64,000 nt of DNA from Solirubrobacterales bacterium (GTDB lineage Bacteria; Actinomycetota; Thermoleophilia; Solirubrobacterales; 70-9), in contig JAWVEZ010000106.1 in assembly GCA_033856455.1 (NCBI GenBank), positions 4,687 to 68,686 on the forward strand. The letters are read 5' to 3'. The notes beneath the pieces were generated by a model. The model ran no database searches and was not told the origin of the DNA. It saw only the letters and a list, made by a program, of their open reading frames with translations. Positions 14,390-53,000 of the stretch are shown here, piece by piece; within the stretch, counting starts at the first letter, position 1, and each line of letters begins with the position of its first letter. Both the position numbers and the translations under genes were made by a program.

Positions 14390-14390
14390 G

Positions 14391-35067: not shown

Positions 35068-35691
35068 TCAGGAAGTGGTCTGGTCGGTGCCGTCCTTGAT
35101 CAAGCCGTTGAGAATGTCGCCGCGGGCGAATTTCCACTGGCGATCGATCGTGGCTTTGGAGTGCCGCAGGAGGCGCAGTACGGCAAGGCCGCGGATGGTT
35201 GCGATCGAGGTCGTCCAACGATGGGTCAGCTGCGGGTCGGCGAACTCCTCGGCGCCGAAGATTTCGACCCCGAGCTGGTGGACGGTCAGGGACATCGAGC
35301 GCTCCTCGTCGGCGATCGCGGCTTTCAACTCCGGCTCGCGGCGGGCGGCAAGCGAGAGCTCGAGGATCGCTGCGAAGAAGGTGCCGCTGTACATCTCGAA
35401 GATGAAGTCGAGGGCGCCGACGATCCGCGAGTGCCCGTGGGGCAGGGCGGCGATCTTCTCCTGCAGGGCGTCGAGCTCGCGGGCCGACATGTGTCGCACC
35501 GACTCCACCACCAGCGTTTGCCGGTTGGCGAAGTGATGCTGATGGGCGCCGCGGCTGACCCCGGCGCGGCGGGCGACCGTGGAGGCGGAGATTCCGGCAT
35601 AGCCCTCTTCGACCAAGACCTCGACCGCAGCGTCGAGGAGCCGCCGCCGGGTCGCGTGGCTCCGTGCCTGTTTGGGTTCGAGCATGTTCAT
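35068..35691 (-). CDS. TetR-family transcriptional regulator
   Basis: RRRLLDAAVEVLVEEGYAGISASTVARRAGVSRGAHQHHFANRQTL is a canonical TetR_N HTH. Confidence 0.85.
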   Translation of the reverse strand: MNMLEPKQARSHATRRRLLDAAVEVLVEEGYAGISASTVARRAGVSRGAHQHHFANRQTLVVESVRHMSARELDALQEKIAALPHGHSRIVGALDFIFEMYSGTFFAAILELSLAARREPELKAAIADEERSMSLTVHQLGVEIFGAEEFADPQLTHRWTTSIATIRGLAVLRLLRHSKATIDRQWKFARGDILNGLIKDGTDQTTS

Positions 35692-35833
35692 CAGTGAATC
35701 TCCACCGGCCGGCGTGCCTTACGAGCGAAATGGACCGCGCCGTACTCTTCCACACGCCCACGACTGACATTTCTCGGCTCACTGTACACCAATAACCAGC
35801 AGCGCTGCATGTTTCGTGGTAGCTTCCACTGCA

Positions 35834-35865
35834 CGGCCGCGCGGTTGCCTCCTCGGCCGCGCGGT
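35834..35865. repeat. direct repeat CGGCCGCGCGGT x2 with 20-nt phasing, just upstream of a -35 box
   Basis: Copies at 35834-35845 and 35854-35865. Each contains the palindrome ccgcgcgg. Confidence 0.4.
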
Positions 35866-35876
35866 CAACTCCCCCC

Positions 35877-35906
35877 TTGACACCCGCCGTTGCCGGCGAT
35901 TAGGGT
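35877..35906 (+). promoter_or_regulatory. promoter candidate TTGACA-18 nt-TAGGGT
   Basis: ttgaca at 35877-35882 and tagggt at 35901-35906 (TANNNT type), about 90 nt upstream of the 35994 start. Confidence 0.45.
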
Positions 35907-35907
35907 C

Positions 35908-35927
35908 TGTACCGAACGCTCGGTACG
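35908..35927. promoter_or_regulatory. operator-like palindrome TGTACCGA-ACGC-TCGGTACG
   Basis: 7-bp perfect inverted arms gtaccga/tcggtac, beginning 2 nt after the -10 candidate. Same motif as at 3588, 40161 and 40236. Confidence 0.5.
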
Positions 35928-35993
35928 GGACGCAAGTATGGGACGGACGCCGCACGGCGGCCGACTTTCGCCGCAACCAGAAGGAGGAGACTC

Positions 35994-37544: not shown

Positions 37545-39544
37545 GCGCTCCGGTGCAGCAGACCGCCGCCGCGGACGAGCTCGGCGCCGACGCGCTCGCC
37601 CGTATGTACGGCGAGATGCTGCGCATCCGCCGCTTCGAGGAGAGCGCCGCGGAAATGTTTCGCAACGGCGAGGTGCCGGGGTTCCTCCACCTCTCGATCG
37701 GTCAGGAGGCGGTGCCGGTCGGCATCTCCTGGCCGCTCGACGACGGCGACGTCGTCACCTCCACCCACCGCGGCCATGGGCACGTGCTCGCCAAGGGCGG
37801 CGACCTCAGCGCCATGTTCGCCGAGCTGATGGGGCGGCGACTGGGGACCTGCGCCGCCCGCGGGGGGTCGATGCACATCGCCGACGTCTCGCTCGGGATC
37901 TTCGGCGCCAACGGCATCGTCGGCGCCGGCCTGCCGATCGCCTGCGGCGCCGCGCAGGCGGCGAGGATGCGCGACGCCGGCGGGATCGCGGTTGCCTATT
38001 TCGGTGACGGCGCCGTTTCCCAGGGCGCCTTCCATGAGGCCATCACCACCGCCTGCCACCTGGAGCTGCCGCTGCTCTTCGTCTGCGAGAACAACCAGTA
38101 CGCCGAGTTCACCAACACCTCCTCGGCGGCAGCGGTTCCGCTGGAGCAGCGGGCCTCCGGCTACGGCATCCGCTTCGAGCGGGTCGACGGCAACGAGGTC
38201 GAGGCGGTGGCGGCGACCGCCGACCGGCTCGTCGCCGAGTTGCGGGCAGGAGCGCCGCCGATCCTGCTCGAGGCGGTCACCCTGCGCGCCCGCGGCCACT
38301 ACGAGGGCGACGCCGAGGAATACCGGGACCTCGAGCGCGACAGCGAATGGGCCGACCGCGATCCACTCGCGCTCGTCGCTTCGCGCCTGAGCGCCGAGGG
38401 GCTCTCAGATCAGCGTCTGGAGGAGATCCGCGAGCGGGTCGAGACGGAGATCGCCGCGGCGTTGGCGGCCGCCCGTGAGAGCGATGAACCCGAGGTCTCC
38501 GAACTGCTCGACAACGTCATCTCCGCGCGCCCACGGCCGCCGGCGCGGGGGTCGGAGCCGGAGGGCGAGGGGGAGATCCGCACGATTCGCGCGATTCGCG
38601 ACGCGCTCCACGATGCCCTCGCCGACGACGAGTCGGTGTTCATGGCCGGGATCGACATCGGACGCGGCGGCGGCGTCTTCAACGCCTCCAAGGGGCTCTA
38701 TGACGAGTTCCCGGGACGGATGCTGGACATGCCGATCGCCGAGACCGCGATCGTCGGCCTCGGCGTTGGCGCGGCGATGGCGGGAATGCGCCCGATCGTC
38801 GAGGTCATGTACCTCGACTTCATCAGCGTCTGCTTCGACCAGATCGTCAACCAGGCAGCGAAGTTGCGCTACATGACCGGCGGCGGCGCCGAGATCGCGC
38901 TGACGATCCGCACCCAGTTCGGCGCCGGCCGCTCCTCCGGGGCCCAGCACTCGCAGAGCCTCGAGGCTCTGCTCGCCCACATCCCCGGGCTGACCGTGTT
39001 GATGCCCTCGACCGCCGCCGACGCCTACGGTCTCCTGCGCAGCGCCGTTGACGACCCCAACCCGGTGATCGTGATCGAGAACCGGATCCTCTACGGCCAG
39101 AAGGGGGCGGCGCCCCCGGCCGGGCACCGGGTCCCGATCGGTCGCGCCAGGGTCGTCCGCGAGGGGACCGACCTGACCGTGGTCTCGGTCTCGCGGATGG
39201 TCCAGGTCGCCGCCGAAGTCGCCGACGAGCTTGCCGCCGAGGGGGTCAGCGTCGAGGTGATCGATCTGCGCACGGTCGCGCCACTGGACCGCCAGTGCAT
39301 CCTCGATTCGGTGGCGAAGACCAACCGGCTCGTCGTCGCCCACGAGGCGGTTACCGACTTCGGGATCGGGGCCGAGATCGCGGCGATGGCGGCGGACGCC
39401 GGCTTCTGGGATCTCGACGCGCCGATTCGCCGCGTCGGCGCCGCCTTCTCACCGGCTCCCTACGCCCCCGCGCTCGAGCAGGCCTGGATGCCCGACGCGG
39501 CGCGGGTCAAGGCAGCGGTGCTCGAGACCCTGGGAGGGATTTAG
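37541..39544 (+). CDS. fused alpha-beta E1 component of a TPP-dependent 2-oxoacid/acetoin dehydrogenase
   Basis: GTGA overlap with the upstream gene. Alpha part: FLHLSIGQEA, YFGDGAVSQGAFHEA...FVCENNQYA (TPP motif). Beta part: VFMAGIDIGRGGGVFNASKGL, MPIAETAIVGLGVGAAMAG. Confidence 0.85.
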   Translation: MSAPVQQTAAADELGADALARMYGEMLRIRRFEESAAEMFRNGEVPGFLHLSIGQEAVPVGISWPLDDGDVVTSTHRGHGHVLAKGGDLSAMFAELMGRRLGTCAARGGSMHIADVSLGIFGANGIVGAGLPIACGAAQAARMRDAGGIAVAYFGDGAVSQGAFHEAITTACHLELPLLFVCENNQYAEFTNTSSAAAVPLEQRASGYGIRFERVDGNEVEAVAATADRLVAELRAGAPPILLEAVTLRARGHYEGDAEEYRDLERDSEWADRDPLALVASRLSAEGLSDQRLEEIRERVETEIAAALAAARESDEPEVSELLDNVISARPRPPARGSEPEGEGEIRTIRAIRDALHDALADDESVFMAGIDIGRGGGVFNASKGLYDEFPGRMLDMPIAETAIVGLGVGAAMAGMRPIVEVMYLDFISVCFDQIVNQAAKLRYMTGGGAEIALTIRTQFGAGRSSGAQHSQSLEALLAHIPGLTVLMPSTAADAYGLLRSAVDDPNPVIVIENRILYGQKGAAPPAGHRVPIGRARVVREGTDLTVVSVSRMVQVAAEVADELAAEGVSVEVIDLRTVAPLDRQCILDSVAKTNRLVVAHEAVTDFGIGAEIAAMAADAGFWDLDAPIRRVGAAFSPAPYAPALEQAWMPDAARVKAAVLETLGGI

Positions 39545-40158
39545 GGAGCGCGGAGGCCGACGAAGAGCGAGTCGCAGAAGACCTCGGCAACCTGCTCGGG
39601 TTCGAGCCGGCCGGAGGGGCGAATCCAGAGGTAGGCGTAGTTGAACTGGCCCAGCACGCCTTTGACGGCGATCGGGTCGAGGTCGCGCAGCTCGCCGCTG
39701 CTGATTCCCTCTTCGAGGATGTCCTTGACGATCTGCTCAAAGCCCTGCCGCAGCTCCAGCACTTCCTCCAGGCGCGCGCCGCTGAGGGCGATGAAGTCCC
39801 GGAAGAAGACAGTCCACTCCGGGATGTGATCGGCGATGTTGCGCATCAGCTTCGCCGCCAGCGCCCGGAAGCGCTCCTCGGCGCTGCCGGCGCCGTCGCG
39901 GATCTCGGTCCCGATGGCGATCATCTCGGTCACGTTGACGCGGCAGATCTCGGCAAGGACGCTCTCCTTGCTACCGATGTGGTAGTACAGACCACCGCGG
40001 CCAAGTTCGACTTGTTGAGAAAGTTCCTCTATACCGGTGCCGTGGTACCCCTGCTTGGCAAACAGCGTCGCGGCCGCTTGGAGGATGCGCGCTCGTTGGA
40101 TCGGCGCCGCCACCCGGGTCGGCTTCTTGGCTGAATTAGGCGGCACGCGCTGAATCAT
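39541..40158 (-). CDS. TetR-family transcriptional regulator
   Basis: 205 aa from MIQRVPPNS. RARILQAAATLFAKQGYHGTGIEELSQQVELGRGGLYYHIGSKESVL. The rest of the 768-aa track ORF is antisense to the two SDR genes. Confidence 0.85.
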   Translation of the reverse strand: MIQRVPPNSAKKPTRVAAPIQRARILQAAATLFAKQGYHGTGIEELSQQVELGRGGLYYHIGSKESVLAEICRVNVTEMIAIGTEIRDGAGSAEERFRALAAKLMRNIADHIPEWTVFFRDFIALSGARLEEVLELRQGFEQIVKDILEEGISSGELRDLDPIAVKGVLGQFNYAYLWIRPSGRLEPEQVAEVFCDSLFVGLRAP

Positions 40159-40160
40159 AA

Positions 40161-40180
40161 TGTACAGACGGGTCGGTACA
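40161..40180. promoter_or_regulatory. operator-like site TGTACAGA-CGGG-TCGGTACA
   Basis: Begins 3 nt upstream of the TetR start codon (minus strand). 16/20 identical to the site at 40236. Confidence 0.5.
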
Positions 40181-40235
40181 CAGGCCGATCCTCCGTGCTC
40201 CCTCGGCAGGGCTCCGCCGAGTCCTTTTCGGCTAA

Positions 40236-40255
40236 TGTACCGACAGATCGGTATA
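40236..40255. promoter_or_regulatory. operator-like site TGTACCGA-CAGA-TCGGTATA
   Basis: Lies 38 nt upstream of the SDR GTG at 40294. Second copy in the same divergent intergenic region. Confidence 0.5.
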
Positions 40256-40293
40256 ACGATGTCGGGGAGCTCGAGCGGACATAGGGGAGTGGC

Positions 40294-41079
40294 GTGAACG
40301 GGGCCGCGGTGATCACCGGCGCCGGGCGCCCTACCGGGATCGGGTTCGCCGCCGCGAAGGCCCTGGCCGCCGACGGCTGGCCGGTCCTGCTCTCCGACCT
40401 CGAGCTCGAGGATTCGGTGCTCGCGGGCCTGCCCGCCGGGGCCGACTCGGCAAGCTTCGCGGCCGACGTCACCGACTCCGCCCAGGTCGAGGCGCTCGGC
40501 GACTTCGCGGTCGAGCGCTGGGGAGCGATCGGCGCTTGGGTCAACAACGCCGGCGCCATGCTGGGCGCCGGCCCGATCGCCGGCGTCGTCGACGAGGACT
40601 GGCAGCGCTGTCAGGCGATCAACGCCGGCGGCTGCTTCCACGGCTGCCGGGCGGCGGTGCGCCGCATGCAGGCGGCGAGCGAGCCGCGCGGCGGCCGCAT
40701 CGTCAACGTCTCCTCGCAGGCCGGGAAGACCGGGCCGCCGTACTTCGCCGCCTACGCGGCGGCCAAGTTCGCGGTGATCGGGCTGACCCAGTCGGTCGCC
40801 GCCGAGGTCGGCCGCAGCGGCATCACGGTCAACGCCGTCTGCCCGGGAACGGTCGACACCCCGCTGCTCGATGAGCCCGGGGGAGTCTGGGAGACGATGG
40901 CGGCGGCGCGCGGGATCAGCGTCGAGCGTGCCCGCGAACGCGCTCCCCGCGCGGCCCCGATCGGGCGCATGGTCGAGCCAGGCGAGGTCGCGAGCATGAT
41001 CGCCTACCTCTGCTCCGACGCGGCCGCCGCGATCAGCGGTGCCGCGATCAACATCACCGGCGGCGACGAGGTTCACTGA
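40294..41079 (+). CDS. SDR-family oxidoreductase
   Basis: AAVITGAGRPTGIGFA, NNAG, and catalytic YAAAKFAV. Confidence 0.85.
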   Translation: MNGAAVITGAGRPTGIGFAAAKALAADGWPVLLSDLELEDSVLAGLPAGADSASFAADVTDSAQVEALGDFAVERWGAIGAWVNNAGAMLGAGPIAGVVDEDWQRCQAINAGGCFHGCRAAVRRMQAASEPRGGRIVNVSSQAGKTGPPYFAAYAAAKFAVIGLTQSVAAEVGRSGITVNAVCPGTVDTPLLDEPGGVWETMAAARGISVERARERAPRAAPIGRMVEPGEVASMIAYLCSDAAAAISGAAINITGGDEVH

Positions 41080-41844
41080 GTGACCGCGGCCACGACCGAG
41101 GTCGGCGCGCTGCGCCCGCTGCTGGGCCGGACCGCGCTGGTGACCGGTGGCTCGCGCGGGATCGGCGCCGCGATCAGCCGCGAGCTCAGCGATGCGGGCG
41201 CCCAGATCGCGGTCAATTTCCACACCAATCACGAGGCCGCCGCGCTTGTCCTGGCCGACCTCCGTCAGGGGTCGACCTCCTGGCCCGCCGACGTCGCCGA
41301 TGCCGATGCGGTCGAGGCGATGGTCAGCGCGGTGGTCGAGCGCTACGGCAGCCTCGACGTCCTCGTCGTCAACGCCGGCATCTGGCGCGGCGGCGCGGTC
41401 GATCGGTTGGCGCCGGAGGACTGGTCGCTGGTCGTCGACACCTCGCTGACCGGCGCTTACCACCTGGTTCGCGCGGCCCTGCCGGCGATGAGGCAGCAGG
41501 GATTCGGCCGGGTGATCGTGCTCAGCTCGGTGGTCGGCCTGGTCGGTCATCCCGGTGACAGCGCCTACGCGGCGGCGAAGGCGGGACTGCTCGGCTTCGT
41601 CAAGGCGGTGGCGAAAGAGACCGGCCGGGACGGGATCACCGTCAACGCGATCGCTCCCGGCTTCGTCGAGACCGAGATGACCGCCGAGGTGCCCGAGCGG
41701 GGGCGCGAACGGATGATGGCGCGGACGCCGCTGCGCCGGGCCGGGACGCCGGAGGAGGTCGCCTCGGCGGCCCGCTTTCTTGCCTGCGACGCTTCCTACG
41801 TGACCGGTCACACCCTCGTCGTCGACGGCGGCTACTCGCTCTAA
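41080..41844 (+). CDS. SDR-family oxidoreductase (FabG-like 3-oxoacyl reductase)
   Basis: ALVTGGSRGIGAA, VNAGI, YAAAKAGLLGF, PGFVETEM. Confidence 0.85.
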   Translation: MTAATTEVGALRPLLGRTALVTGGSRGIGAAISRELSDAGAQIAVNFHTNHEAAALVLADLRQGSTSWPADVADADAVEAMVSAVVERYGSLDVLVVNAGIWRGGAVDRLAPEDWSLVVDTSLTGAYHLVRAALPAMRQQGFGRVIVLSSVVGLVGHPGDSAYAAAKAGLLGFVKAVAKETGRDGITVNAIAPGFVETEMTAEVPERGRERMMARTPLRRAGTPEEVASAARFLACDASYVTGHTLVVDGGYSL

Positions 41845-41865
41845 CATTCATTCGCGAATGAATGT
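41844..41865. promoter_or_regulatory. perfect 22-bp AT-rich palindrome ACATTCATTCG|CGAATGAATGT abutting the TetR start codon
   Basis: Occupies the whole gap between the SDR stop (TAA, 41842-41844) and the TetR ATG (41866). Confidence 0.55.
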
Positions 41866-42495
41866 ATGCTGGCGAGCGTGCCAGCGGCGACGACCCCGGA
41901 CAAGACCCGCCGAAGTCAGGAGGAACGCCGCGCCGGCACCCGCGCGACCCTGCTGGACGCCGCTCTCGAGTGCTTGGTCGAGGTCGGTTACGCGCGCACC
42001 ACGACCGGCTTGGTCTGCGAGCGCGCCGGGCTCTCTCGCGGCGCTCACCTGCACCATTTCGGCACCCGCGCCAGCCTCGTCGCGGCGGCGCTGGTCGAGC
42101 TCTCCAAGCGCCGCGAAGCCGAGTTCGGGGAACAGATCGCCGCGCTGCCCAGCGGCGCTGGGCGCGAGGAGCAGGCCTTGGATCTGCTCTGGAGCTGGTA
42201 CACCGGGCCGCTCTTCTACGCCTCGGTCGACCTCGGCGCCGCCGCTCGCACCGACTCTGAGCTGCGCGCCCGCCTGGAACCGGTCGAGCGCCACCTCAAC
42301 CAGCTGACGCTGATCCGCTGCCGGCGCATGTTCGCCGCCGGTCCCGAGGACCCGAGCCGCGACCAACCGATCCAGTTGGCGCTATCCGCGATCCGCGGGC
42401 TTGCCCTGTTGCCGGTTCTACACCCGGGCGCCGGCAAGGCCGAGCAGCAGTGGGGCTTCGCCCGCGACGAGCTGCTGCGGATCCTGGCGGACTGA
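41866..42495 (+). CDS. TetR-family transcriptional regulator
   Basis: TRATLLDAALECLVEVGYARTTTGLVCERAGLSRGAHLHHFGTRASL. Confidence 0.85.
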   Translation: MLASVPAATTPDKTRRSQEERRAGTRATLLDAALECLVEVGYARTTTGLVCERAGLSRGAHLHHFGTRASLVAAALVELSKRREAEFGEQIAALPSGAGREEQALDLLWSWYTGPLFYASVDLGAAARTDSELRARLEPVERHLNQLTLIRCRRMFAAGPEDPSRDQPIQLALSAIRGLALLPVLHPGAGKAEQQWGFARDELLRILAD

Positions 42496-42503
42496 GGAGA
42501 GAG

Positions 42504-43550
42504 ATGAAGGTCGACTTCACCGGCTCCTTCTCACGCCTCGACGACGCGGGCGAGTCAGCCCGCGAGGCCCAGGAGCGGGGGTATGACGGTTGGTGGGTGA
42601 CCGAGACCAAAGTCGACCCGCCGCTCGCCTGTGCGGTCGCCGCCGAGCGGACCGAGCGAATCGAAATCGGCACCGCGATCACGATCGCCTTCGCCCGCAA
42701 CCCGATGACCGTGGCCCTGCAGGCCAACGACCTGCAGACGCTCTCGGGCGGCCGCTTCTCGATTGGGCTCGGCTCGCAGATCAAGGCCCACGTGACCAAG
42801 CGCTTCTCGATGCCGTGGACCAAACCGGGGGCGCGGATGCGCGAGTTCGTGACCGCGATGCGGGCGATCTGGGAGAGCTGGGAGCAGGGGTCCCCGCTGA
42901 GCTTCGAGGGCGAGTTCTACACCCACACCCTGATGACGCCGTTCTTCGACCCGGGACCGAACCCGCACGGTGTCCCCGACGTCTACCTGGCCGCGGTCGG
43001 GCCCCGGATGACCGAAGTCGCCGGCGAAGTCGCCGACGGCGTCATCTGCCATGCCTTCTCGACCGAGCGCTACGTGCGCGAGGTGACCAGGCCGCTGGTC
43101 GAACGCGGCCGCGCCGCCGCCGGCAAAGAGTCCGAGGCCTTCGACCTGATCGCGCCGGGCTTCGTCGTCGTCGGCGATGACGAGCAGCAGCTGGCCGCCG
43201 GAATCAAATCCGTAAAGGAGCAGATCGGCTTCTATGGCTCGACCCCGGCCTACCGGCCGGTGCTCGAGCTGCACGGCTGGGGTGACCTTCAAGACCGGTT
43301 GGGGGCGATGACCAAGCGGGGCGAATGGGATCGCCTCGACAGCGCGATCAGCGACGAGGTGCTCGACGCCTTCGCGGTAGTCGGCACCCCCGAGCAGGCG
43401 GTCACCGAGCTCTCCCGCCGCTACGGAGACCTCGCGACCCGCCTGACGATCGCCCTGCCGGAGCGCCCCGACATGGAGCGCTGGGCACCGCTGCTCTCCG
43501 ACCTGCAGAAGACCGGAAGCCAACCGAAGAAGAAAGGGAGTGGAGGATGA
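42504..43550 (+). CDS. luciferase-like (LLM-class, probably F420-dependent) oxidoreductase
   Basis: ATG at 42504 after ggagagag. MKVDFTG...GYDGWWVTETKVDP, FSIGLGSQ. Confidence 0.75.
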   Translation: MKVDFTGSFSRLDDAGESAREAQERGYDGWWVTETKVDPPLACAVAAERTERIEIGTAITIAFARNPMTVALQANDLQTLSGGRFSIGLGSQIKAHVTKRFSMPWTKPGARMREFVTAMRAIWESWEQGSPLSFEGEFYTHTLMTPFFDPGPNPHGVPDVYLAAVGPRMTEVAGEVADGVICHAFSTERYVREVTRPLVERGRAAAGKESEAFDLIAPGFVVVGDDEQQLAAGIKSVKEQIGFYGSTPAYRPVLELHGWGDLQDRLGAMTKRGEWDRLDSAISDEVLDAFAVVGTPEQAVTELSRRYGDLATRLTIALPERPDMERWAPLLSDLQKTGSQPKKKGSGG

Positions 43551-44329
43551 GCGAGGTAGAGCTGAGCTGGGAGCGGGACGAGATTGCGGTGGTGACGCTG
43601 AACCGCCCGCAGAGCCTCAACTCGATGAACCGGGCCTTGGTCGCCGGCCTCGGCGCCATCCTCACCGAGCTCGAGGCCGAGGGCCGGGCCCGGGTTGTCG
43701 TGGTCACCGGCGCCGGTCGCGGCTTCAGCTCCGGTCACGATCTCAGCGAGCTCGAATCCGAGGCCGCGGCCGCCGACCTCGACGACCTGATGGTGAATCA
43801 GCAGGCCTTCTCGGATCTGATCATCCGCATCAAGGAGCTGAGGGTCCCTGTCGTCGCCGCCGTCAACGGACCCGCCGCGGGGGGTGGCCTGGCGATCGCC
43901 CTGGCCGCCGACACCCGCGTCTGCGACGACGCCGCCCGCTTCAATGCCGCCTTCGTCCGGCTCGGCATCTCCGGCTGCGACGTCGGCGTCTCCTACCTGC
44001 TGCCGCGAATCGTGGGGCCGACCCTGGCCTTCGAGATGATGCTGACCGGCCGGCTGATCGACGCCGAGGAGGCCCTCCACTCAGGTCTGGTCCTGCGCGT
44101 CGTCCCGGAGGGCGAGGTCCTCGCCGCCGCCCTCGAGATCGCCGACGCGATCCTCGCCAACTCTCGCTTTGGGGTGCAGATGACCAAGGAGGTGATGTGG
44201 TCCAACCTCGACGCCCCCGACCTCCGCAGCGCGATCATCACCGAGGACCGCACCCAGGCGATGTGCCTGATGGGGGAGGACGCCCGGCGAGCGATCCCCG
44301 CCATGCTCGCCTCCCGCAGCTCGCGCTGA
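43547..44329 (+). CDS. enoyl-CoA hydratase/isomerase (crotonase)
   Basis: ATGA overlap with the upstream gene. IAVVTLNRPQSLNSMN, GAGRGFSSGHDL, AAVNGPAAGGGLAIALAAD. Confidence 0.85.
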   Translation: MSEVELSWERDEIAVVTLNRPQSLNSMNRALVAGLGAILTELEAEGRARVVVVTGAGRGFSSGHDLSELESEAAAADLDDLMVNQQAFSDLIIRIKELRVPVVAAVNGPAAGGGLAIALAADTRVCDDAARFNAAFVRLGISGCDVGVSYLLPRIVGPTLAFEMMLTGRLIDAEEALHSGLVLRVVPEGEVLAAALEIADAILANSRFGVQMTKEVMWSNLDAPDLRSAIITEDRTQAMCLMGEDARRAIPAMLASRSSR

Positions 44330-44339
44330 GCGACGCCGG

Positions 44340-44990
44340 CTACGTCGCGTTCGCGCGCGCCAGCTCCCGGTCCGGCTCGTCGCCGAGAAAGTGAAGCGCA
44401 CATAGATGAACCATCTCGGCGTGCAGGTCCCCGATGGTGTCGACCCTGCCGCTCCTCAGATGGGAAGCCACGACGAAGAGGAAACCTCTCGCGAGCAGTT
44501 CCTCGATCCGTGGCGGTGGGTCGCAGTAATCCGCGCCCCTGAGCTCGCGCCCCGCGGTGCGCCCACCCTTCAGCGCCGCCTGAAGCGCCTCGGCTCCGGC
44601 GTCGACGCACGAGCCGCAATTCCCCTCCACGCTTATGGAATGAATCAGGCAAAGCTCGGCCAGGAGCGGCGCCGTCACTGTCTCGGCCAAGAAGACGGCG
44701 ATGGTGTCGCTCACCTGCTCTGACCAAGGGCGCGGTTCGCCGAGTGTCGCCCGGACCGGGTCGAAAACCCGTTTCTCCGCCTCCTGGCAGGAGAACCGCA
44801 AGCAATCGTCCTTGTCGTCGAACAGCTTGTAGAAGCCCACCCGGGAGATCCGTGTTCGGGTGGCGATGTCGCCGACCGTCAGGCTCGAGACCCCGCGCTC
44901 ATGGGCAAGCTCTGAGACCGCGTCCATAACGCAGCGCCGACGCTGATCTTCAAGGAAACCTGGCGGCAGAGGATGACCAATGGAAACCAT
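44340..44990 (-). CDS. TetR-like regulator paralog T1 (Cys-signature subfamily)
   Basis: QRRRCVMDAVSELAHERGVSSLTVGDIATRTRISRVGFYKLFDDKDDCL. Confidence 0.7.
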   Translation of the reverse strand: MVSIGHPLPPGFLEDQRRRCVMDAVSELAHERGVSSLTVGDIATRTRISRVGFYKLFDDKDDCLRFSCQEAEKRVFDPVRATLGEPRPWSEQVSDTIAVFLAETVTAPLLAELCLIHSISVEGNCGSCVDAGAEALQAALKGGRTAGRELRGADYCDPPPRIEELLARGFLFVVASHLRSGRVDTIGDLHAEMVHLCALHFLGDEPDRELARANAT

Positions 44991-45020
44991 AGGTCATCCT
45001 AGACAAAACCAAGCTAGAAA

Positions 45021-45665
45021 CTAGCTGCCTGGTGCTTCGCCCAGCAGCTCCCGCGCTCGCCGGGCCAAACGCAAGCCTTCCTCCTGCCCGAGGAAGGTGA
45101 CGGTGGTCCCGTAAATGAAGTCCGGCAGTAGACGTGGCAGGCGCTCGGTCCGGCCGGCGGCGATTTCCCGCCGGACCACGGCCTCGGCCCCTCCGATCGC
45201 GGCGCGCGCGGTGCTGACCGGCTGCCCCCCGCTCACCGCGTAATCGCGGCCGCGGTCGAACATCGCCGCGAGCATGCGATTGCCGGCGTCATAGGCGGTG
45301 CGCAGCTCGGGTGGCCCCATCTGGCGGGCGCCGATGAAGGAGAGCTGGGCGAAGGAGGGATGGGCAGCCATGAACTCGAGGATCGCCTTGATCCCGACCA
45401 TCGCGCTGTCCCATTCGGAGCGGTCAGCGGAGTAGGACGCGCCGACGATCGCCAGCACCTCGGCGATCACCGCGTCGAAGGCGCTGACGACGCAGGCCTC
45501 CTTGCTGCCGAACAGCTCGGCGAAGGTCCGCTCGGAGACCGCGGCGCGCTTGATCACCTCGGCGACGCTCGTCTCGGCGTAGCCACGCTCGGCGCACAGC
45601 TCGACCATCGCCCGCATGATCCGCTCGCGCTCGGAGGGGGAGAGGATGCTGGCGGTCACCTCCAT
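45021..45665 (-). CDS. TetR-like regulator paralog T2
   Basis: ERERIMRAMVELCAERGYAETSVAEVIKRAAVSERTFAELFGSKEACV. C-terminus GGAEAVVRREIAAGRTERLPRLLPDFIYGTTVTFLGQEE is shared with T4 and T5. Confidence 0.75.
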   Translation of the reverse strand: MEVTASILSPSERERIMRAMVELCAERGYAETSVAEVIKRAAVSERTFAELFGSKEACVVSAFDAVIAEVLAIVGASYSADRSEWDSAMVGIKAILEFMAAHPSFAQLSFIGARQMGPPELRTAYDAGNRMLAAMFDRGRDYAVSGGQPVSTARAAIGGAEAVVRREIAAGRTERLPRLLPDFIYGTTVTFLGQEEGLRLARRARELLGEAPGS

Positions 45666-45666
45666 C

Positions 45667-46272
45667 TCAGAGTGCCCCCGATGCGGCCCGCATCTCGTCG
45701 GCCGCGCGCTCGGGCCCCATGAAGGGGACGAGGACCGAGAAGAGGATCTCCGGCGCCATCGCCGGCAGCCCGCCGCCGCGCCCGGCGTTGACCTCGCTGA
45801 AGATGATCGCCTCGGCTGCTCCGATCGCCAGCATCTCCACCTCGCTCGGCAGCTCCTCCTCGACGCCGGAGTAATCGCGCCCCTCCCGCATAAAGGGGAG
45901 AAAGCGCTCGAGCAGCTCGACGTAGCGCTCGTAGGTCGCCGGGCGGATGCCCGGGAACGAGCGGGTCAGCACACGCGCCATATCTGGGTCGGAGGCGATC
46001 AGCGCGAGCAGCGCTGTGAGCCCAGTCCGGACCCGCTCGGGCCAGGGGTCGCTCGATGAGCAGCCCACGGTCGCCTGCGCCACGACGCGGTCGGTGAGAT
46101 GGGCGTAGGCGGCGAACAGGCACGAGTCCTTGTCACCGAACTCCGCCACGAACTCGGCGTCGGAGACCCCGGCGACCTCGCAGGCGCGCACAACCGCGGC
46201 CTCGCCGTAGCCCTTCTCGCCCAACTCGAACAGCATCGCCATCAGCAATGCCTCCCTTTGCGCTCCCTCCAT
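45667..46272 (-). CDS. TetR-like regulator paralog T3
   Basis: QREALLMAMLFELGEKGYGEAAVVRACEVAGVSDAEFVAEFGDKDSCL. Its stop is 1 nt from the T2 start. Confidence 0.7.
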   Translation of the reverse strand: MEGAQREALLMAMLFELGEKGYGEAAVVRACEVAGVSDAEFVAEFGDKDSCLFAAYAHLTDRVVAQATVGCSSSDPWPERVRTGLTALLALIASDPDMARVLTRSFPGIRPATYERYVELLERFLPFMREGRDYSGVEEELPSEVEMLAIGAAEAIIFSEVNAGRGGGLPAMAPEILFSVLVPFMGPERAADEMRAASGAL

Positions 46273-46365
46273 CAGACCTCCTCGGCAGCTGGATTGGCAC
46301 CTGGCCTCGATCGTCGGAGCGCCTCCCGTAACGGTGGCAACGCTACCACTGTCCGTATCCCTTGC

Positions 46366-47037
46366 TTACGGCCACTTTTCGACCCCCTGGTTCGTTCCCT
46401 GTACAAGTAGGTTTGCCCGCCGCGCCAGCCTCAGCGCCTCCGCCTGGCCGAGGAAAGGGACCATCGCTCCGTAGGTGAGCGGCGCCAGCAGCAGCGGCAG
46501 CTCCTCGACTCCCCCGCGCGCGATGGCGACCCGCACCACCGTCTCCGCCGAACCGAGCGCGGCGCGCGTGGCGCCGAGCGGCTGGGTGTCGACGGTCGAG
46601 TATTGGCGCAGCCGTTCCATCATCACCAGCAACGCCTGGGTCGCGGCCTCGTGGGCCTCGCGCACCCGCGGCGGCGCCATGTGCCGGGAGACGATGTAGG
46701 CCAGCTTCGCGTAGGAGGGGCGGGCGGCCATCAGCTCGAGGATCGCCAGCGCGCCGGCGAGGATGCTGTCGGCCTCGGCCAGGTCCTCCGAGTAGGCGCC
46801 CGACATCGCCGCGATCGTCTCGCCCATGACCACGTGCACCGCGGCCAGCAGGCACTCCTCCCTGTCCTCGCCGAACAACGCCTCGACTTCGGCGACCCCG
46901 ACGTCCGCGCCGGCCGCGACGTCGGCGAGCGTGGTCGCCTCGTAGCCCCGCTCCGCGCAGAGGCGCGCCATCGCCTCCAGGATGCGGTCACGCTGGGAAG
47001 GGGCGAGGGCTTCGGGCGCTGGTGGCGCCGGGGTCAA
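46366..47037 (-). CDS. TetR-like regulator paralog T4
   Basis: QRDRILEAMARLCAERGYEATTLADVAAGADVGVAEVEALFGEDREECL. Confidence 0.7.
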   Translation of the reverse strand: MTPAPPAPEALAPSQRDRILEAMARLCAERGYEATTLADVAAGADVGVAEVEALFGEDREECLLAAVHVVMGETIAAMSGAYSEDLAEADSILAGALAILELMAARPSYAKLAYIVSRHMAPPRVREAHEAATQALLVMMERLRQYSTVDTQPLGATRAALGSAETVVRVAIARGGVEELPLLLAPLTYGAMVPFLGQAEALRLARRANLLVQGTNQGVEKWP

Positions 47038-47723
47038 TGCCGCCCACCCGGCGGCGAGGCCGCCGCCGCTCGCCCAAGCCGCAGCGCCTCCGCCTGTCCC
47101 AGGAGCGGGGCGAGAGTGCCGTAGACCAGGGCGGGGAGCAGGCGCGGCAGCTGCGCCGCCCGCCCGGCGACCACCTCGCGCCTGACCAGTGCCTCGGCTC
47201 CGCCCAGCGCGGCCCGCGTCGCCGGCGCCGGCAGCGCCGCGCCGACCGCGGCCACGTGCGCCCGGCTGACCATCACCGAGATCAGATGCAGGCTGGCCTC
47301 ATAGGTGAAGTGAAGGCGCTCGGTGCCTCCCTGCCGCGCCTCGACGCAGCCGAGGTACGCGGAGGCCGGCTGCCCGGCGATCAGCTCGAGCGCCGCCCGC
47401 AGCCCTGCCAGCTCCTGGTCCAGAGCGCCCGCGCTCCCGCGTCCGGCGGTTGCGGCTGTGGTGAGGACCTCCGAGGCGAGCTGGTTCAGGGCCGCGATCG
47501 CGCAGGCCTCCTTGTCGGCGAAGAGGAGGTCGAACGTCTCCCGGGCCACGCCCGCCCGCGCAAGCACCTGCTCGATCGAGGTCCCCTGGTAGCCGCTCTC
47601 GGCGCAGCACTCGGTCAGGGCCGCCAGGATGCGGTCGCGCTCACTGGGAGTGAGGACTTCGAGCCCCGGATCACGGATACCGCCGCCGGGGGGCTTGATC
47701 GAGCCAGCGTTCCCCGTTGCCAT
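47034..47723 (-). CDS. TetR-like regulator paralog T5
   Basis: ERDRILAALTECCAESGYQGTSIEQVLARAGVARETFDLLFADKEACA. 4-nt overlap with T4. Confidence 0.75.
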   Translation of the reverse strand: MATGNAGSIKPPGGGIRDPGLEVLTPSERDRILAALTECCAESGYQGTSIEQVLARAGVARETFDLLFADKEACAIAALNQLASEVLTTAATAGRGSAGALDQELAGLRAALELIAGQPASAYLGCVEARQGGTERLHFTYEASLHLISVMVSRAHVAAVGAALPAPATRAALGGAEALVRREVVAGRAAQLPRLLPALVYGTLAPLLGQAEALRLGRAAAASPPGGRH

Positions 47724-47897
47724 AAGGGCCGATGGTAGCGCCTAGCCAGCCAAACAGTTTGAGAAGGGCTAGGCACCGTGCTGTTCTAGGAAAGAATATG
47801 GTTTCGCAAGGCGGCGGGAGACGCCCCGGCAACCCAACCAGAGCGAGCTCGATGCGGAATCGAATTCTTTCCGAGGCGGAACTATGGCTTTGCCCAA
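47724..47897. promoter_or_regulatory. divergent intergenic (promoter) region between the minus-strand and plus-strand TetR-like sub-arrays
   Basis: Locally AT-richer. 9-bp inverted arms ggaaagaat (47789-47797) and attctttcc (47864-47872). No confident -35/-10 assignment. Confidence 0.35.
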
Positions 47898-47933
47898 TTG
47901 GGCGGGTCCGCGACCGGCAGCTATCCTGCGCCG

Positions 47934-48587
47934 ATGCCGAAGGCGCCAAAGGGGGTGGTGTCGCGAGCCCGACCGGGCGGCCACCAGCTGCGCCCGGAGG
48001 TGATCGTCCACCATCAGCGCCAGCGCATCCTCACCGGCGCCGCGAAGGCGATCGCCGCGAAGGGCTACCGAGAGACCTCGGTCGCGGACATCGTCAAGAG
48101 CGCGGCGATCGCCCGCGCCCGCTTCTACGAGAACTTCTCCTCCAAGGAGGACTGCTTCCTCGCCCTCTACGACGCCACCGCCGAGGCGACCCTGAGCGTC
48201 GTCGCCGAGGCCTGCGCGACGGCGGAGGGCGAGTTCTCCGACCGGGTCGAGGTCGGCCTCGACGCCCTGCTCGCGTACTTCGCCGCGGACCCGGACCTTG
48301 CCCGTGCCTTCATCGTCGAGGGCCCGGCGGTGGGGGCGCCGATCAACGAGCGCTTCGAGCGCCTGATCGCCGACTTCGCGGCGATGCTGCGCAAGGGACG
48401 TCCGCGAGAGGCCGCCACCGAGCTGCCGGAGACGGTCGAGGAGACGGTCGTCGGCGGGCTCTACTGGTTGCTCTACTACGCGCTGCTCGACAACCGTCCG
48501 AAACGGATCCAGAAGCTGCTGCCCCAGCTGACGGAGTTCTCGCTGATCCCCTTCTCGGGCGGCGAGGCCACCCCGGCTCTCTCCTAG
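47934..48587 (+). CDS. TetR-like regulator paralog T6
   Basis: QRQRILTGAAKAIAAKGYRETSVADIVKSAAIARARFYENFSSKEDCF. ATG at 47934 is preferred; TTG at 47898 is the track alternative. Confidence 0.75.
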   Translation: MPKAPKGVVSRARPGGHQLRPEVIVHHQRQRILTGAAKAIAAKGYRETSVADIVKSAAIARARFYENFSSKEDCFLALYDATAEATLSVVAEACATAEGEFSDRVEVGLDALLAYFAADPDLARAFIVEGPAVGAPINERFERLIADFAAMLRKGRPREAATELPETVEETVVGGLYWLLYYALLDNRPKRIQKLLPQLTEFSLIPFSGGEATPALS

Positions 48588-48609
48588 CTCTCTCAGGCGG
48601 CCGGCGCCG

Positions 48610-49236
48610 GTGAGCCGGCCCTGGCCCGGGGGTCGGATCGAGCCGGCCGAGGAGCGACGAAGGCTGCTCGTCGCCTTCGTCGAGCTCGTCGCCGAGGGTG
48701 GCATCGACGCGGCCGATCGCGGCTCGGTCTGTGCCCGTGCCGGCCTCGGGCGACGCGCCTTCGAACGCCACTTCGTGGATCGTCCCACCTGCTTCGACGC
48801 CGCCTGGGACTGGCTCAAGCTCGAGTACCTGGGACGGCTCGAGGCGGCGCTCGCCCCTCACGAGGGTTGGCGCCAGCGGCTGCGAGCGGGCGCGGGGGAG
48901 ACGCTGCGATTGGTCGGGGAGCATCCCCAGCAGGCGCGCTTCCTGGCGGTCGAGTCGCTTGCCCTCGAAGCCGGTCGTTCCCGCCAGCGGGCGCTGGGGG
49001 ATCGCATAGCCCAGCGGCTGGACGGCTTCCGCGCCGAGCTCGTGGATCCGAGCGGGCCACCCGCGGCGACCTCCAGCTGGGTCGTCGGCCTCTTCTTCGA
49101 CCGCATCTACCGGTGCCTCTCGGCCGGCGAAGAGCAGGCCCTTCCCGCGCAGCTGCCGCAGTTGCTGTTCCTCGCGGTCAGCGCGTACTCGGGGACAGAG
49201 GCGGGCCTCGAGGAGCTGCGCGCGCCCCCGCCCTAG
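48610..49236 (+). CDS. TetR-like regulator paralog T7 (most divergent HTH)
   Basis: RRRLLVAFVELVAEGGIDAADRGSVCARAGLGRRAFERHFVDRPTCF. GTG start. Confidence 0.6.
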   Translation: MSRPWPGGRIEPAEERRRLLVAFVELVAEGGIDAADRGSVCARAGLGRRAFERHFVDRPTCFDAAWDWLKLEYLGRLEAALAPHEGWRQRLRAGAGETLRLVGEHPQQARFLAVESLALEAGRSRQRALGDRIAQRLDGFRAELVDPSGPPAATSSWVVGLFFDRIYRCLSAGEEQALPAQLPQLLFLAVSAYSGTEAGLEELRAPPP

Positions 49237-49264
49237 CCGCACACAGTTCTAGAATGCTTTTCCA

Positions 49265-49963
49265 GTGTTGAGCAAGCCGCCAGGGGATAGTCCAGACCAT
49301 CCGGACGAGTTGGCCCAGCTCCCCCACGGCCGTCACGGCCTGCCGCAGGAGTTCGTCGAGCACAACCAGCGCGAACGCCTGATCGCGGCCTTCACCGAAC
49401 TGGTCGGCGAGGTCGGCTACAACGAGGTGACGATCAGCGCCACCACCGCCGGCGCCGCCGTCTCCAGCCGCACCTTCTACACCTTCTTCGCGACGATCGA
49501 GGAGTGCTTCCTCGGCGCCTTCGAGGTCGCCCTCGAGCGCCTCGGGCCGCCGCTGCTCGAAGCCTTCGAGTCCGAGGACGAGTGGCCGCGCGGGGTCCGA
49601 GCCGGCCTGGCGCAGGGGCTCTCCCTGCTCTCCTCCGACCCCGCCACAGCTCGTCTGCTCACCGCCGAGCCCTTCGTCGCCGGCTCCGCCGTCGCCGAGC
49701 GTTACAAAACCGCGCTGGAAGCGGTCACCCCCTACCTGCGCGCCGGGCGCAAGCTGCGCGCGCCGGGCGCTCCCGAGCTCCCGGAGAGCACCGAGCGCGG
49801 CCTGCTGGGGGCGATCAACGGGCTCGTCGCCCGCAAGGTCAACGCGGGCGGCGCCAGCGATCTGCTTGACCTCCTGCCCGACCTTACCCAGTTCGTCCTC
49901 ACGCCTTACCTCGGTGCCGCGGCCGCCCGCGAGCTCGCCACCGAAACCATGGCTCATCCTTGA
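49265..49963 (+). CDS. TetR-like regulator paralog T8
   Basis: QRERLIAAFTELVGEVGYNEVTISATTAGAAVSSRTFYTFFATIEECF. GTG start. Confidence 0.7.
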   Translation: MLSKPPGDSPDHPDELAQLPHGRHGLPQEFVEHNQRERLIAAFTELVGEVGYNEVTISATTAGAAVSSRTFYTFFATIEECFLGAFEVALERLGPPLLEAFESEDEWPRGVRAGLAQGLSLLSSDPATARLLTAEPFVAGSAVAERYKTALEAVTPYLRAGRKLRAPGAPELPESTERGLLGAINGLVARKVNAGGASDLLDLLPDLTQFVLTPYLGAAAARELATETMAHP

Positions 49964-49993
49964 CAAGTACGCGTCCTCTCATGTACGGTACCG

Positions 49994-50017
49994 GCGTCTT
50001 CTCGGGATAGAAGACGC
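49994..50017. promoter_or_regulatory. 9-bp inverted repeat gcgtcttct-cgggat-agaagacgc between T8 and the secreted-protein operon
   Basis: Lies 31 nt after the T8 stop and 78 nt before the TTG start at 50095. No U-tract follows, so it could be either a terminator or an operator. Confidence 0.35.
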
Positions 50018-50094
50018 GCAGGGGGCCTGCCAGGGGCAGTCCCGCACCGAAGCAGGGGCCACCAGGGGGCCTCCGGGACAAGGAGAGACGTACG

Positions 50095-53000
50095 TTGAGA
50101 AGCCACGCGAGGGTTCTTCTGGCAGTCGCAGCTCTGGCGGCTCTTGCTGCCCTAACCGCCATCCCCACTGCCGCGATCGCGGGCCCGCCGACGATCTCGC
50201 CTGACCCCGTCGCCGACCCGGCGATCAGCAAAGCCCACCTCACCGGCACCGTGACGATCGACGGCGAAGGGGACGGCGGCTCCCTCACCTGGGTCATGTT
50301 CCAGTACTGCCGCCCCCAGAGCCCCGGCGAATGCACCGAGACGACGGGCTCCTGGGAACTCGGTCCTGAACAGTTCACCAAACAGTTCCCGGCCGGGACC
50401 AGCGCCGAAGCCCACGAGGAAGACCTCACCGGGCTGAAAGCCAACACCGAATACGTGGTCCGCATGATCGCCTACCCCGAAGCCGGCGGGGAATTCTTCT
50501 CGCCCGAAGGCGGCTACCAGGCCTTCACCACCGACCCGGCGCCGACCGCCCCGGTGCCGACCCTCACGACGGCGACCCCCGGCTACGTCTCGATCCACCT
50601 CGAGGGCTCCGTCGATCCCGAAGGCGGCAACGACAACGGCGGCGAGCCGCTGCCGATCCACTGGGCCTTCGAGGTCTCCACCAGCGGCGACCCCGGGACC
50701 TGGTCTGCCAACGGCGCCGAAGGCGACATCACCGGCGCCGAAGCCGGCGAAAGCAACCCGATCGCGATCTCCAGCGACCTCGGCAGCCTCGCGCCCGGGA
50801 CCACCTACTTCTACCGCCTTCGCGTCACCTACGGCGGCCTCGAGGTAATCGAGGGCGGCGGCTCGTCGGTCGAAACCTCGCCGGTCGCCAAACCGGCGAT
50901 CGTGTTCGACCCGGTCTCAGCGATCACCGGCGACAGCGCCCACCTCTCCGGCGAAGTCGACCCGGGGGGCTCAGACCCCGCCTTCACGACCAACTGCCGC
51001 TTCGAGTACATCCGCGACATCGACTACCAACCGCGCAACGAGGTGCGGCAGGTGAAACTGCTGGGCAGCAGCGGGACCCGCGTCTGGTACTACAGGAACG
51101 GAGCGGAACAGACCCCGCCGCTCCCCTACAACGTCTCCGCGCCCGTCCTGCAGGCGGCGCTCGAGGCGCTTCCCGAAATCGGAACGGGCAACATCTCGGT
51201 CAGCGGAGGGCCGGGAGACGCGACCGGCTCGACCCCCTACATCTTCACCTTCACCGGCGCTTTCGCGGGCACCGACATGTGGCAGTCCATCACCGTGGAC
51301 AGCCCCTCGACCGACACCACCCTGGTCGAGGGCTACCCCGGCGGGTATGACTACGGGACCCCCATCCCCTGCGACCCGGCAACGCTCGAAGGCTCAGGCA
51401 GCCAGGAGGTCGAGGCCGACCTCGCGGACCTCCAGCCGAACACGCTCTATCACGTGCGCTTGGTCGCCAACAATGCCGCCGGCGCCTCGATCGAGCAGAG
51501 CACCTTCACCACCGCCGCGGTGCCGCCCACCGTGGCCGCGGCCACGGTGGGCGCCGTGAGTGACACCGCCGCCCGCCTCACCGCAAGCGTCGACGCCAAC
51601 AACTCCCCGACCGACGTCAGCTTCGAATACGCGACTGAGGCGGACTTCTCCGACGCCCTCACCGCCCCGAGCGGCGAGGGGACCGAGCTCTCGGGCAACG
51701 GTGAGCTCGCTTTCGCCGACCTCACCGGCCTCGAGCCCGACACCGAGTACTTCTGGCGGGTCGGCGCCGAGAACCCTGAGGGCACCGACGCCGACGTCGC
51801 CGAGGTGCCCTTCAAGACCTGGCCGGCAGCCGGCCCCGATCAGGGTGGGGTCGGCGTAGAAGGCCGGCGCCAGATCGAGCTGATCAGCGACCCGAAGGCG
51901 TCGAACGCCGTCAACCGGGCGGCGCTGTCTGCCTCCGGCGACCGCGTCCTCTACACCGTGCTTGCAGGCTCGGACCAGGCCAGCTACAGCGACCAAGGGG
52001 AAATGCTCGCCGATCGCACCGCGACTGGTTGGAAGATCCGCAACGCGCTTCCGCCCGCCAGCGCCTTTCAGCAGGACAACGCCAAGATCCAAGGCTACTC
52101 GGCGGACTTCACCCGGTTTGCCGTCAGAGCAACGTCTCACTTCCCAGCGTCAGGCCCCGGAACGGTCGACACCGGGCTGTGGGAACCCGACACCGGCAAA
52201 CTCACGCGCTGGGCCTCGGGGACGCCTCAGGACGCAAACGCCAGCTCCACGATGATCTTCCCGGAGAGTGGAAACCGGCTGCTGTGGGACTTCGAAGCCA
52301 CCTCGGGCGATCAAATGTTGCTCTATGAACTCGCCGGCGAGAATCCGGTCGAGGTCAGCCTGCTGCCGGATGAAAGCTCCCCTCCCTGCGGAGTCGGGAG
52401 TATTGCCTTCGGACACATCATCACCAACAACGCAATCGGGACGCAGAACTGGATCTCCGAAGACGGCGAACGGTTCGTCTTCCAGACTCCCACGGGCAAC
52501 GACTGCGGCGCCCCGCAACAGCTCTACATGCGCGAAGGAGGCGTCGACGGCACAACGATCCGGATCTCCCCGCCAGCGGTGGCGGGGCCCGAGCAGGGGG
52601 CTAAGTTCATCCAGGCGACGCCGGACATGTCGGTGATCTTCTTCTTGACGGCGGCCCGGATTGACCCAGTCGACCTCAACCAGACCAACGACCTCTACCG
52701 CTACACGGTCGGAGGCGCCGCCGAGTGCGTCACCTGCGTGGTTCCGCAGGCAGACATCAACTCGAATATCCACCCCGCCAGCGAAAGCACGCTCGCGGTG
52801 TCAGAAAACGGCGAGCGCGCCTACTTCGCCTCCGAACGTGTATTGGCGCCGGCGGCGGCGGGAGTGAATGGCCTCAAGGTGTATGTGTGGAGGGACGAAT
52901 CGCCCGATTCAATCGGCTACGTAGCGCCGTTTCCTGGCTCGTGGTCATTTAAGACGACGTCGTCTTCCTTTTCCTCCGCGACGACGCCGAACGGACGGGT

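Follow-up and report, generated by a model that had tools for sequence, protein, structure and literature searches.

TetR proteins are the textbook case of a regulator with one gene, one homodimer, one ligand and one operator. Here we analysed a window of 64,000 nucleotides (nt) on contig JAWVEZ010000106.1 from an uncultured member of the Solirubrobacterales, an abundant and almost unstudied soil lineage, in which positions 44340-49963 hold an array of eight TetR-like genes (T1-T8) next to an operon of signal-peptide proteins (P1-P6). An earlier, sequence-only reading of this DNA had proposed eight open reading frames (ORFs) here, and these were present exactly at the coordinates and on the strands it gave. 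According to the ORF list, T1-T5 form a five-gene arm on the minus strand and T6-T8 a three-gene arm on the plus strand. The genes are listed below with their lengths in amino acids (aa) and their scores against the Pfam profile TetR_N.

44340..44990, minus strand: T1, 216 aa, ORF; TetR_N 30.8 bits, family hidden Markov model (HMM) 249 bits; last gene of the distal arm
45021..45665, minus strand: T2, 214 aa, ORF; TetR_N 40.1 bits; member of the T2/T4/T5 clade, which is recently expanding
45667..46272, minus strand: T3, 201 aa, ORF; TetR_N 12.5 bits; own Shine-Dalgarno (SD) sequence GAGGAGG
46366..47037, minus strand: T4, 223 aa, ORF; TetR_N 28.3 bits; TTG start
47034..47723, minus strand: T5, 229 aa, ORF; TetR_N 30.3 bits; first gene of the distal arm
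47934..48587, plus strand: T6, 217 aa with revised start, ORF; TetR_N 47.2 bits; first gene of the P-proximal arm
48610..49236, plus strand: T7, 208 aa, ORF; TetR_N 15.9 bits; degenerate helix-turn-helix (HTH)
49265..49963, plus strand: T8, 232 aa, ORF with GTG start; TetR_N 23.4 bits; adjoins P1
50095..64000, plus strand: operon P1-P6 of signal-peptide proteins with Lys/Arg-rich C-terminal tails preceded by Cys motifs

All eight ORFs are intact, and their GC content at third codon positions (0.78-0.93) is coding-like. The gaps from T1 to T8 are, in order, 30, 1, 93, -4, 174, 22 and 28 nt, with 131 nt between T8 and P1; the spacings claimed earlier for T3/T2 (1 nt), T6/T7 (22 nt), T7/T8 (28 nt) and T8-P1 (131 nt) were measured at the same values. 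The claimed 4-nt overlap of T4 with the T5 stop holds as well. It depends on the TTG start of T4, which is supported because the shorter call of the Joint Genome Institute (JGI) would cut off the conserved helix 1. For T6, the longest ORF begins at TTG 47898 (47898-48587), and the true start is most likely ATG 47934, since it follows a conserved TATCCT -10 box by 6 nt and gives a protein within the 217-220 aa range of more than 100 orthologues. With this start, the divergent gap between T5 and T6 becomes 210 nt. Among the database annotations, NCBI and JGI both call T6 at 217 aa, which is probably right, the longest-ORF start being too early, and the automated JGI calls for T1 (195 aa) and T4 (201 aa) begin too late and lose helix 1. 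NCBI names the array proteins QOE75_1358-1364.

As had been claimed, the eight proteins align end to end, with pairwise identities of 23-47% and T2, T4 and T5 as the closest set (39-47%). A profile built from the eight scored 235-278 bits per copy versus 35-44 bits for three other TetRs of the window, which matched through the HTH alone. This difference indicates that T1-T8 are one distinct subfamily and not a chance run of TetRs, and in a database search the scores fell off steeply past the subfamily. The gathering score of TetR_N (PF00440), 24, was passed by five of the eight (T1, T2, T4, T5 and T6); T8, T7 and T3 scored below it and are joined to the other copies by full-length BLAST matches (E 1e-12 to 1e-25) and by the family HMM. 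An AlphaFold2 model of T3, the weakest Pfam scorer, was built from the family alignment and has ten helices at a mean predicted local distance difference test (pLDDT) of 92. In Foldseek it superposed on Bacillus FadR/YsiA with a template-modelling (TM) score of 0.77-0.83 and a root-mean-square deviation of 2.4-3.0 Å, and its top PDB matches were all TetR regulators at probability 1.00. A sequence profile search of the PDB likewise matched FadR-type TetRs and Mce3R at about 55 bits over profile positions 23-187, which cover both domains. A TetR_N match and a fold of nine to ten helices, made up of a three-helix DNA-binding domain and a helical C-terminal core, mark the TetR/AcrR family, and on these results T1-T8 belong to it. 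Judged from this model, the TetR fold is confirmed for the family, and the earlier assignment to TetR stands on the five TetR_N matches and the FadR-like model of T3.

No NCBIfam equivalog came near its cut-off for T1-T8. The best scores against the FadR equivalog NF053878 were 31-34 bits (T2 and T6) versus a cut-off of 200, and those against the ScbR/ArpA gamma-butyrolactone receptor model NF041196 were at most 32.9 bits versus 150. Double TetR family regulators (TFRs) have two modules in about 400 aa; T1-T8 are each one module of 201-232 aa. With the PADLOC anti-phage models, no match at E<=1e-3 was obtained for six T proteins, P1 and P4. The array proteins are in the TetR family, but in none of its characterised subfamilies. 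The N- and C-terminal patterns described from sequence alone are visible in the alignment, including the invariant Cys after K-E/D-x. This Cys, at the start of helix 4 (T1 residue 63), is shared by all eight copies and kept within the orthologue groups; the usual residue here in TetRs is Leu. The Cys may be a redox-sensitive or a structural residue.

In order to place the array among other genomes, related loci (numbered L004 onwards) were collected from long contigs with family matches, from one genome per GTDB species with T2, T4 and T5 as queries, and from five held-out loci (L033-L037) picked through T6 orthologues only. Family members were labelled by the best-matching window paralogue, giving 13 array loci from distinct GTDB species or metagenome contigs besides the five held-out ones. 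The array-type loci, about 19 independent ones, all come from Solirubrobacterales, Conexibacteraceae or Thermoleophilia metagenome-assembled genomes. A block recurs among them in which T6, T7, T8, a P1-like and a P2-like gene follow each other in one direction and, divergently from T6, a T5/T2-like gene, T3, one to three T2-like copies and T1 follow each other in the other. Eight to ten copies are found in L005, L006, L008-L011, L033 and L035; L007, L034, L036 and L037 are partial or rearranged with five or six copies, and L013-L015, L017 and L018 are reduced five-gene forms. The largest array, in L004, has twelve family domains at 6937-15279. This array is flanked by ArdC-like, transposase and SNIPE/T5orf172 genes, with no P cassette, and may lie on or beside a mobile element. 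Two Catellatospora loci were rejected as family members, having only a match to the HTH pattern.

Orthologues at corresponding positions are 46-74% identical for T6, 48-68% for T8, 43-69% for T3, 45-72% for T2, 35-55% for T7 and 28-40% for T1, which is the least conserved group, with T3 among the best. Since the identity between orthologues exceeds that between paralogues, the duplications that gave T1, T3, T6, T7, T8 and the T2 clade predate the split of these species. Public metagenomes contain over 120 distinct clusters of T6 orthologues alone (>=63% identity), and no cultured organism was found among the T6 orthologues. Could the array nevertheless be a neutral, lineage-specific tandem amplification of decaying copies with no joint function? 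The copy number of the T2/T4/T5 clade, the only part to vary, ranges from 1 to 4 between loci, and there are split or truncated copies at L004 11296-11987, where one copy is split into two ORFs, and at L010 5794-6460. Against this stand the positional orthologues at 43-74% in about 19 loci of different species versus 23-47% between paralogues, the eight intact window copies with their coding-like third positions, the many T6 clusters and the conserved intergenic blocks described below. We regard such neutral amplification as very improbable, and a lineage-specific accident is ruled out by the positional orthologues, the T6 clusters and the held-out loci. Orthologue identities of 43-74% also argue against the loci being one recently transferred element. 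On sequence comparison, each copy is kept by purifying selection, and T4 of the window is an extra T2-clade copy specific to this lineage.

The linkage to the secreted operon recurs in many genomes. The operon itself is a duplicated two-gene cassette, in which P1 resembles P3 in its C-terminal part and P2 resembles P4 (37% identity over 940 aa), followed by P5 with NHL and InlB B-repeat domains and by the start of P6, a sixth signal-peptide protein. Past T8, 14 array loci (the window, L005-L010, L013, L014 and L033-L037) carry genes of the P1/P3 and P2/P4 types, and single T8-like genes stand beside other P cassettes in L021-L024, L026, L027 and L029. The earlier reading would have fallen had array and operon never been linked in related genomes and the array been a lineage-specific accident; the 14 loci and the positional orthologues show otherwise. 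More than 2,200 proteins belong to the P2/P4 family, every one annotated as hypothetical and without a Pfam domain. An AlphaFold2 model of P4 (pLDDT 77) is an all-beta string of immunoglobulin (Ig)-like sandwiches with a weak likeness to integrin legs, complement/alpha-2-macroglobulin MG domains and Gram-positive adhesins; the large P proteins are therefore taken to be extracellular, surface or adhesin-like. A specific fold assignment for P4 was rejected, as Foldseek gave only generic Ig-like multi-domain matches (TM<=0.24), and PDB sequence searches with P1 and P2 returned noise or fn3 matches only.

We then compared the helices of the eight paralogues across the orthologue groups. The canonical FY..F of recognition helix a3 is kept only in T1, T6 and T8, with T6 having the strongest canonical TetR HTH (FYENF). 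The recognition-helix Tyr is gone in T2, T4, T5 and T7, and the HTH of T3 is conserved but acidic (efeaEF). Paralogues differ most from one another in a2, a3 and a7 (identity 0.18-0.25) and least in a1, a6 and a9; within orthologue groups every helix is conserved (0.42-0.59). This pattern fits diverged DNA and ligand specificities and, taken helix by helix, would suit homodimers and heterodimers alike. It also agrees with a reading in which the eight genes encode independent homodimeric, ligand-gated repressors, each with its own signal and operator, some of them elsewhere in the genome, held together only by tandem duplication and shared promoters. That would be the default TetR paradigm (PMC3511530), and the most diverged parts are indeed the a7 pocket and the a2/a3 recognition helices. 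We consider this a real but distinctly less probable account than the one favoured below, since it leaves unexplained the frozen gene order across species and the retention of a T7 that has no HTH. T7 orthologues of this kind, consisting of the C-terminal (ligand and dimerisation) domain only and 149-170 aa long, occur in five loci:

L005, 6738-7184: HTH-less T7 orthologue
L006, 8667-9122: HTH-less T7 orthologue
L007, 7917-8420: HTH-less T7 orthologue
L033, 10695-11129: HTH-less T7 orthologue
L037, 10719-11189: HTH-less T7 orthologue

These genes hold the same position as T7 and lie 20-44 nt from T6, which leaves no room to encode an HTH; their retention in five loci indicates that T7 needs no DNA-binding domain of its own. 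Such a protein speaks for a reading in which adjacent paralogues, for instance T6 with T7 or T7 with T8, would form obligate heterodimers or higher heteromers on asymmetric operators, so that the array would amount to a few composite regulators. The absence of the canonical recognition-helix FY from T2-T5 and T7 points the same way, as do the tight gene spacing with its 4-nt overlap and the natural abundance of fused proteins. An exhaustive profile search returned 2,335 clusters (50% identity) at E<1e-30, and the best 150 subfamily relatives include 138 two-domain and 7 three-domain fusions. Two-domain copies also occur in or near the array in L004 (a 434-aa fusion at 12003-13358) and L006 (after P2). 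In Mce3R there is a precedent for two unlike TFR modules that make up one asymmetric DNA-binding unit on a non-palindromic operator (PMC11667970). However, the fusions share only 30-40% identity with T1-T8 and combine paralogue types without a fixed pattern, helix a8 of the dimer interface ranks with the most diverged parts between paralogues (0.24), as would favour self-pairing, and an HTH-less copy could equally be a ligand sink. Heteromeric pairing of some members is plausible; the array as a set of obligate heteromers we consider about as probable as one of independent repressors.

To see how the array might be controlled, the divergent region was aligned across nine loci and the other intergenic regions were compared between loci. 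The following elements were found:

47724..47933, no strand assigned: divergent control region with four conserved blocks, B1-B4 (cross-locus alignment)
47737..47732, minus strand: B1, predicted T5 -10 box TACCAT, 8 nt before the T5 ATG
47787-47807, minus strand: B2, TAGGAAAGAATATGGTTTCGC, carrying the shared motif (cross-locus alignment)
47851-47876, no strand assigned: B3, inverted repeat CGGAA-N9-TTCCG in the window, a perfect GGAAC-N6-GTTCC in L005 and L006
47922-47927, plus strand: B4, predicted T6 -10 box TATCCT, 6 nt before ATG 47934
49250..49255, plus strand: predicted T8 -10 box TAGAAT, 9 nt before the T8 GTG; TAGAAT/TAAGAT is conserved in L004-L011, 9-10 nt from the start
45012..45026, minus strand: terminator-like hairpin over the T2 stop, suggesting separate expression of T1
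44970..45000, no strand assigned: 31-nt palindrome AGGATGACCaATGGaaaCCATaGGTCATCCT across the T1 start codon, with 14-nt arms that are 93% complementary; it contains the motif GAAACCAT / RAACCA-N-TYCC
49943..49989, plus strand: predicted P1 promoter region, in which the motif GAAACCATGGCTCATCC abuts the -35 box TTGACA (49960-49965), with an 18-nt spacer and the -10 box TACGGT (49984-49989)
49990..50094, plus strand: structured 5' leader of P1, about 105 nt with three hairpins; SD AAGGAG at 50080-50085
49994-50017, plus strand: leader hairpin H1, GCGTCTTCT-N6-AGAAGACGC, at the predicted transcription start
50055-50073, plus strand: leader hairpin H3 with the conserved loop ACCAGGG, just before the SD

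T5 and T6 appear leaderless; their predicted promoters have no -35 consensus, and the sites in the divergent region lie near their -60. The conserved box before T8 marks a separate promoter of leaderless type, as predicted from the alignment, and T1 is probably expressed separately from its own promoter. The palindrome across its start codon is a candidate operator, with an equivalent motif site at the T1 start in L005, L006 and L010. Further candidate operators are the motif sites at 47787-47807 and 49943-49960 and the inverted repeat at 47851-47876; TetR dimers typically bind a (pseudo)palindromic operator and are released from it by a small ligand. The -35 box of P1 overlaps the T8 stop, and this promoter too is conserved across loci. 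A generic sigma-70 scan found no promoter, and the proposed promoters rest on cross-locus conservation. On this basis at least four transcription units are predicted, with promoters for T5, T6, T8 and probably T1. Of the two divergent sub-arrays described earlier, the two arms are seen but not a pair of sub-operons, and the view that the plus arm reads straight into the secreted operon gives way to one in which T8 and P1 each have a conserved promoter of their own. Separate promoters are also what independent repressors would be expected to have.

In the leader of P1, 8 of 19 base pairs show compensatory changes (RNAalifold), with G-U changes across loci as well, and a covariance model matches a leader after T8 in ten array loci. 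No Rfam match was obtained at E<=1 across 43500-51000. The leader may be a new cis-regulatory RNA; alternatively, its hairpin H1 could be a DNA operator. A small ORF starting from the conserved ATGGTTyC of B2 was considered and discarded, as neither its length nor its sequence is conserved (9-29 aa elsewhere, an open overlap frame in the window).

The control points of the locus share an AT-rich motif, RAAACCAW, with the extended form RAACCA-N5-8-TYCYT. RAAACCAW occurs six times in the window versus 1.1 expected, and four of the six copies lie at the T1 start, in B2 and abutting the -35 box of P1. L005, L006, L009 and L010 have the motif at these three positions too, in matching relative orientations, and the longer motif occurs 17 times versus about one expected across 12 array loci, 14 of them in array intergenic zones. 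One motif at three control points of one locus is not explained by independent repressors. The motif is only an imperfect palindrome, as an asymmetric, heteromeric reader would lead one to expect. As a general mark of all P cassettes it is ruled out by its absence from the singleton loci L021-L029.

These observations lead us to favour, with a probability of about 0.55, a subfunctionalised multi-TetR control module that would autoregulate its two arms and control the adjacent surface-protein operon through shared sites. A TFR with a divergent neighbour closer than 200 bp usually regulates it, and only 1% of such neighbours are themselves regulators (Ahn et al., PMC3511530). Here both divergent partners, T5 and T6, are TFRs, and their gap fits the ~200-bp rule of the same study. 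In the module as we envisage it, the canonical members T6, T8 and T1 would bind the shared motif sites and the GGAAC-N6-GTTCC repeat, and such binding would set the transcription of both arms and of P1. The non-canonical T2-T5 and T7 would add ligand inputs, whether by binding operators of their own or as partners of a canonical member, and T7 would most likely act through protein-protein contact. Ligands might be acyl-CoA-like, a weak suggestion from the similarity to the FadR fold.

Several observations weigh against this module. Synteny and motifs are the basis of all its proposed regulatory targets. Five array loci (L004, L011, L015, L017 and L018) have no P homologue within 10 kb, as would also suit independent repressors, and P cassettes are multi-copy in these genomes, which raises the background of chance adjacency. 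The motif test is partly circular, the pattern having been defined from the same orthologous sites; among the held-out loci the strict motif stands at the predicted positions in two of five (L033 and L037, not L034-L036), and the singleton T8-like/P-cassette loci mentioned above lack it. An AT-rich motif abutting a -35 box might instead serve as an UP element or be bound by some other factor, and P1, with a strong predicted promoter and leader of its own, could be controlled independently of the array. A more far-reaching version of the control module, in which T6, T8 and T1 pair with the non-canonical or HTH-less T7, T3 and T2 clade, so that many ligand modules on few DNA-reading modules would switch the multi-copy surface-protein cassettes, is distinctly less probable than the account favoured here. 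If true, heteromeric TetR logic of this kind would be without precedent among the described one-component regulators of bacteria.

Literature searches turned up no account of a conserved array of eight to ten TetR genes, in keeping with the earlier claim that no system of this layout has been described, and we know of no array around mce3R. The closest structural relative is Bacillus FadR (YsiA; PDB 5gp9, 3whc, 1vi0), with its N-terminal HTH and all-helical ligand/dimerisation domain. The resemblance is structural only, at 16-20% identity. The array shares with typical TetRs a divergent neighbour about 200 bp away or less (PMC3511530), but it differs from FadR in having eight clustered paralogues in conserved order, a TetR as the divergent neighbour and five non-canonical recognition helices. 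Mce3R (PDB 9b7y; PMC11667970) belongs to the same broad TetR branch and was the fifth-best PDB match, with two matched stretches, and the T1-T8 subfamily is likewise rich in two- and three-domain fusions. In contrast, T1-T8 are separate single-module genes, whereas Mce3R is fused and regulates mycobacterial lipid and cholesterol genes. The nearest layouts are those of Streptomyces, where similar TetR genes lie side by side and jointly regulate one another and a nearby target, as in the SAV576/SAV577 pair (PMC4051647) and in butenolide/GBL receptor sets such as AvaR1/AvaR2 (PMC5744401); they comprise two or three genes rather than eight to ten, with no conserved divergent two-arm layout and no HTH-less member. 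Large tandem clusters of one-component regulators are known from the PAS4-LuxR solos of Photorhabdus (plu0915-plu0925, plu2001-plu2016; PMC4235431), where clustering and redundancy are unexplained; these are of the unrelated LuxR/PAS4 family and of another phylum, so that the analogy is one of layout only. The array would offer a natural test case for paralogue cross-talk, for signal integration by heterodimers and for the rise of regulatory complexity through tandem duplication. Synthetic biology would gain a source of orthogonal TetR parts, and the very large family of secreted proteins of the Solirubrobacterales a first approach to its function.

Upstream of the array, 35068-44329 holds genes of lipid and acyl-CoA metabolism together with three ordinary TetRs (35068-35691, ~39541-40160 and 41866-42495), two short-chain dehydrogenases/reductases, an LLM-class oxidoreductase (42450-43550) and an enoyl-CoA hydratase (43547-44329) convergent on T1. 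This flank is not conserved in other array loci. Far from the array, positions 523-560 of the window form a near-perfect hairpin of about 15 bp, AGAGGACCACGCGGAA-ACCAT-ATTCCGCGTGGTCCTCT, which holds the array motif GGAAACCATATTCC and lies 40 nt upstream of a 329-aa ORF (581-1570) without a Pfam match. A further motif copy is found at 1592-1599 on the minus strand. The hairpin could mark a remote member of the regulon or be a coincidence.

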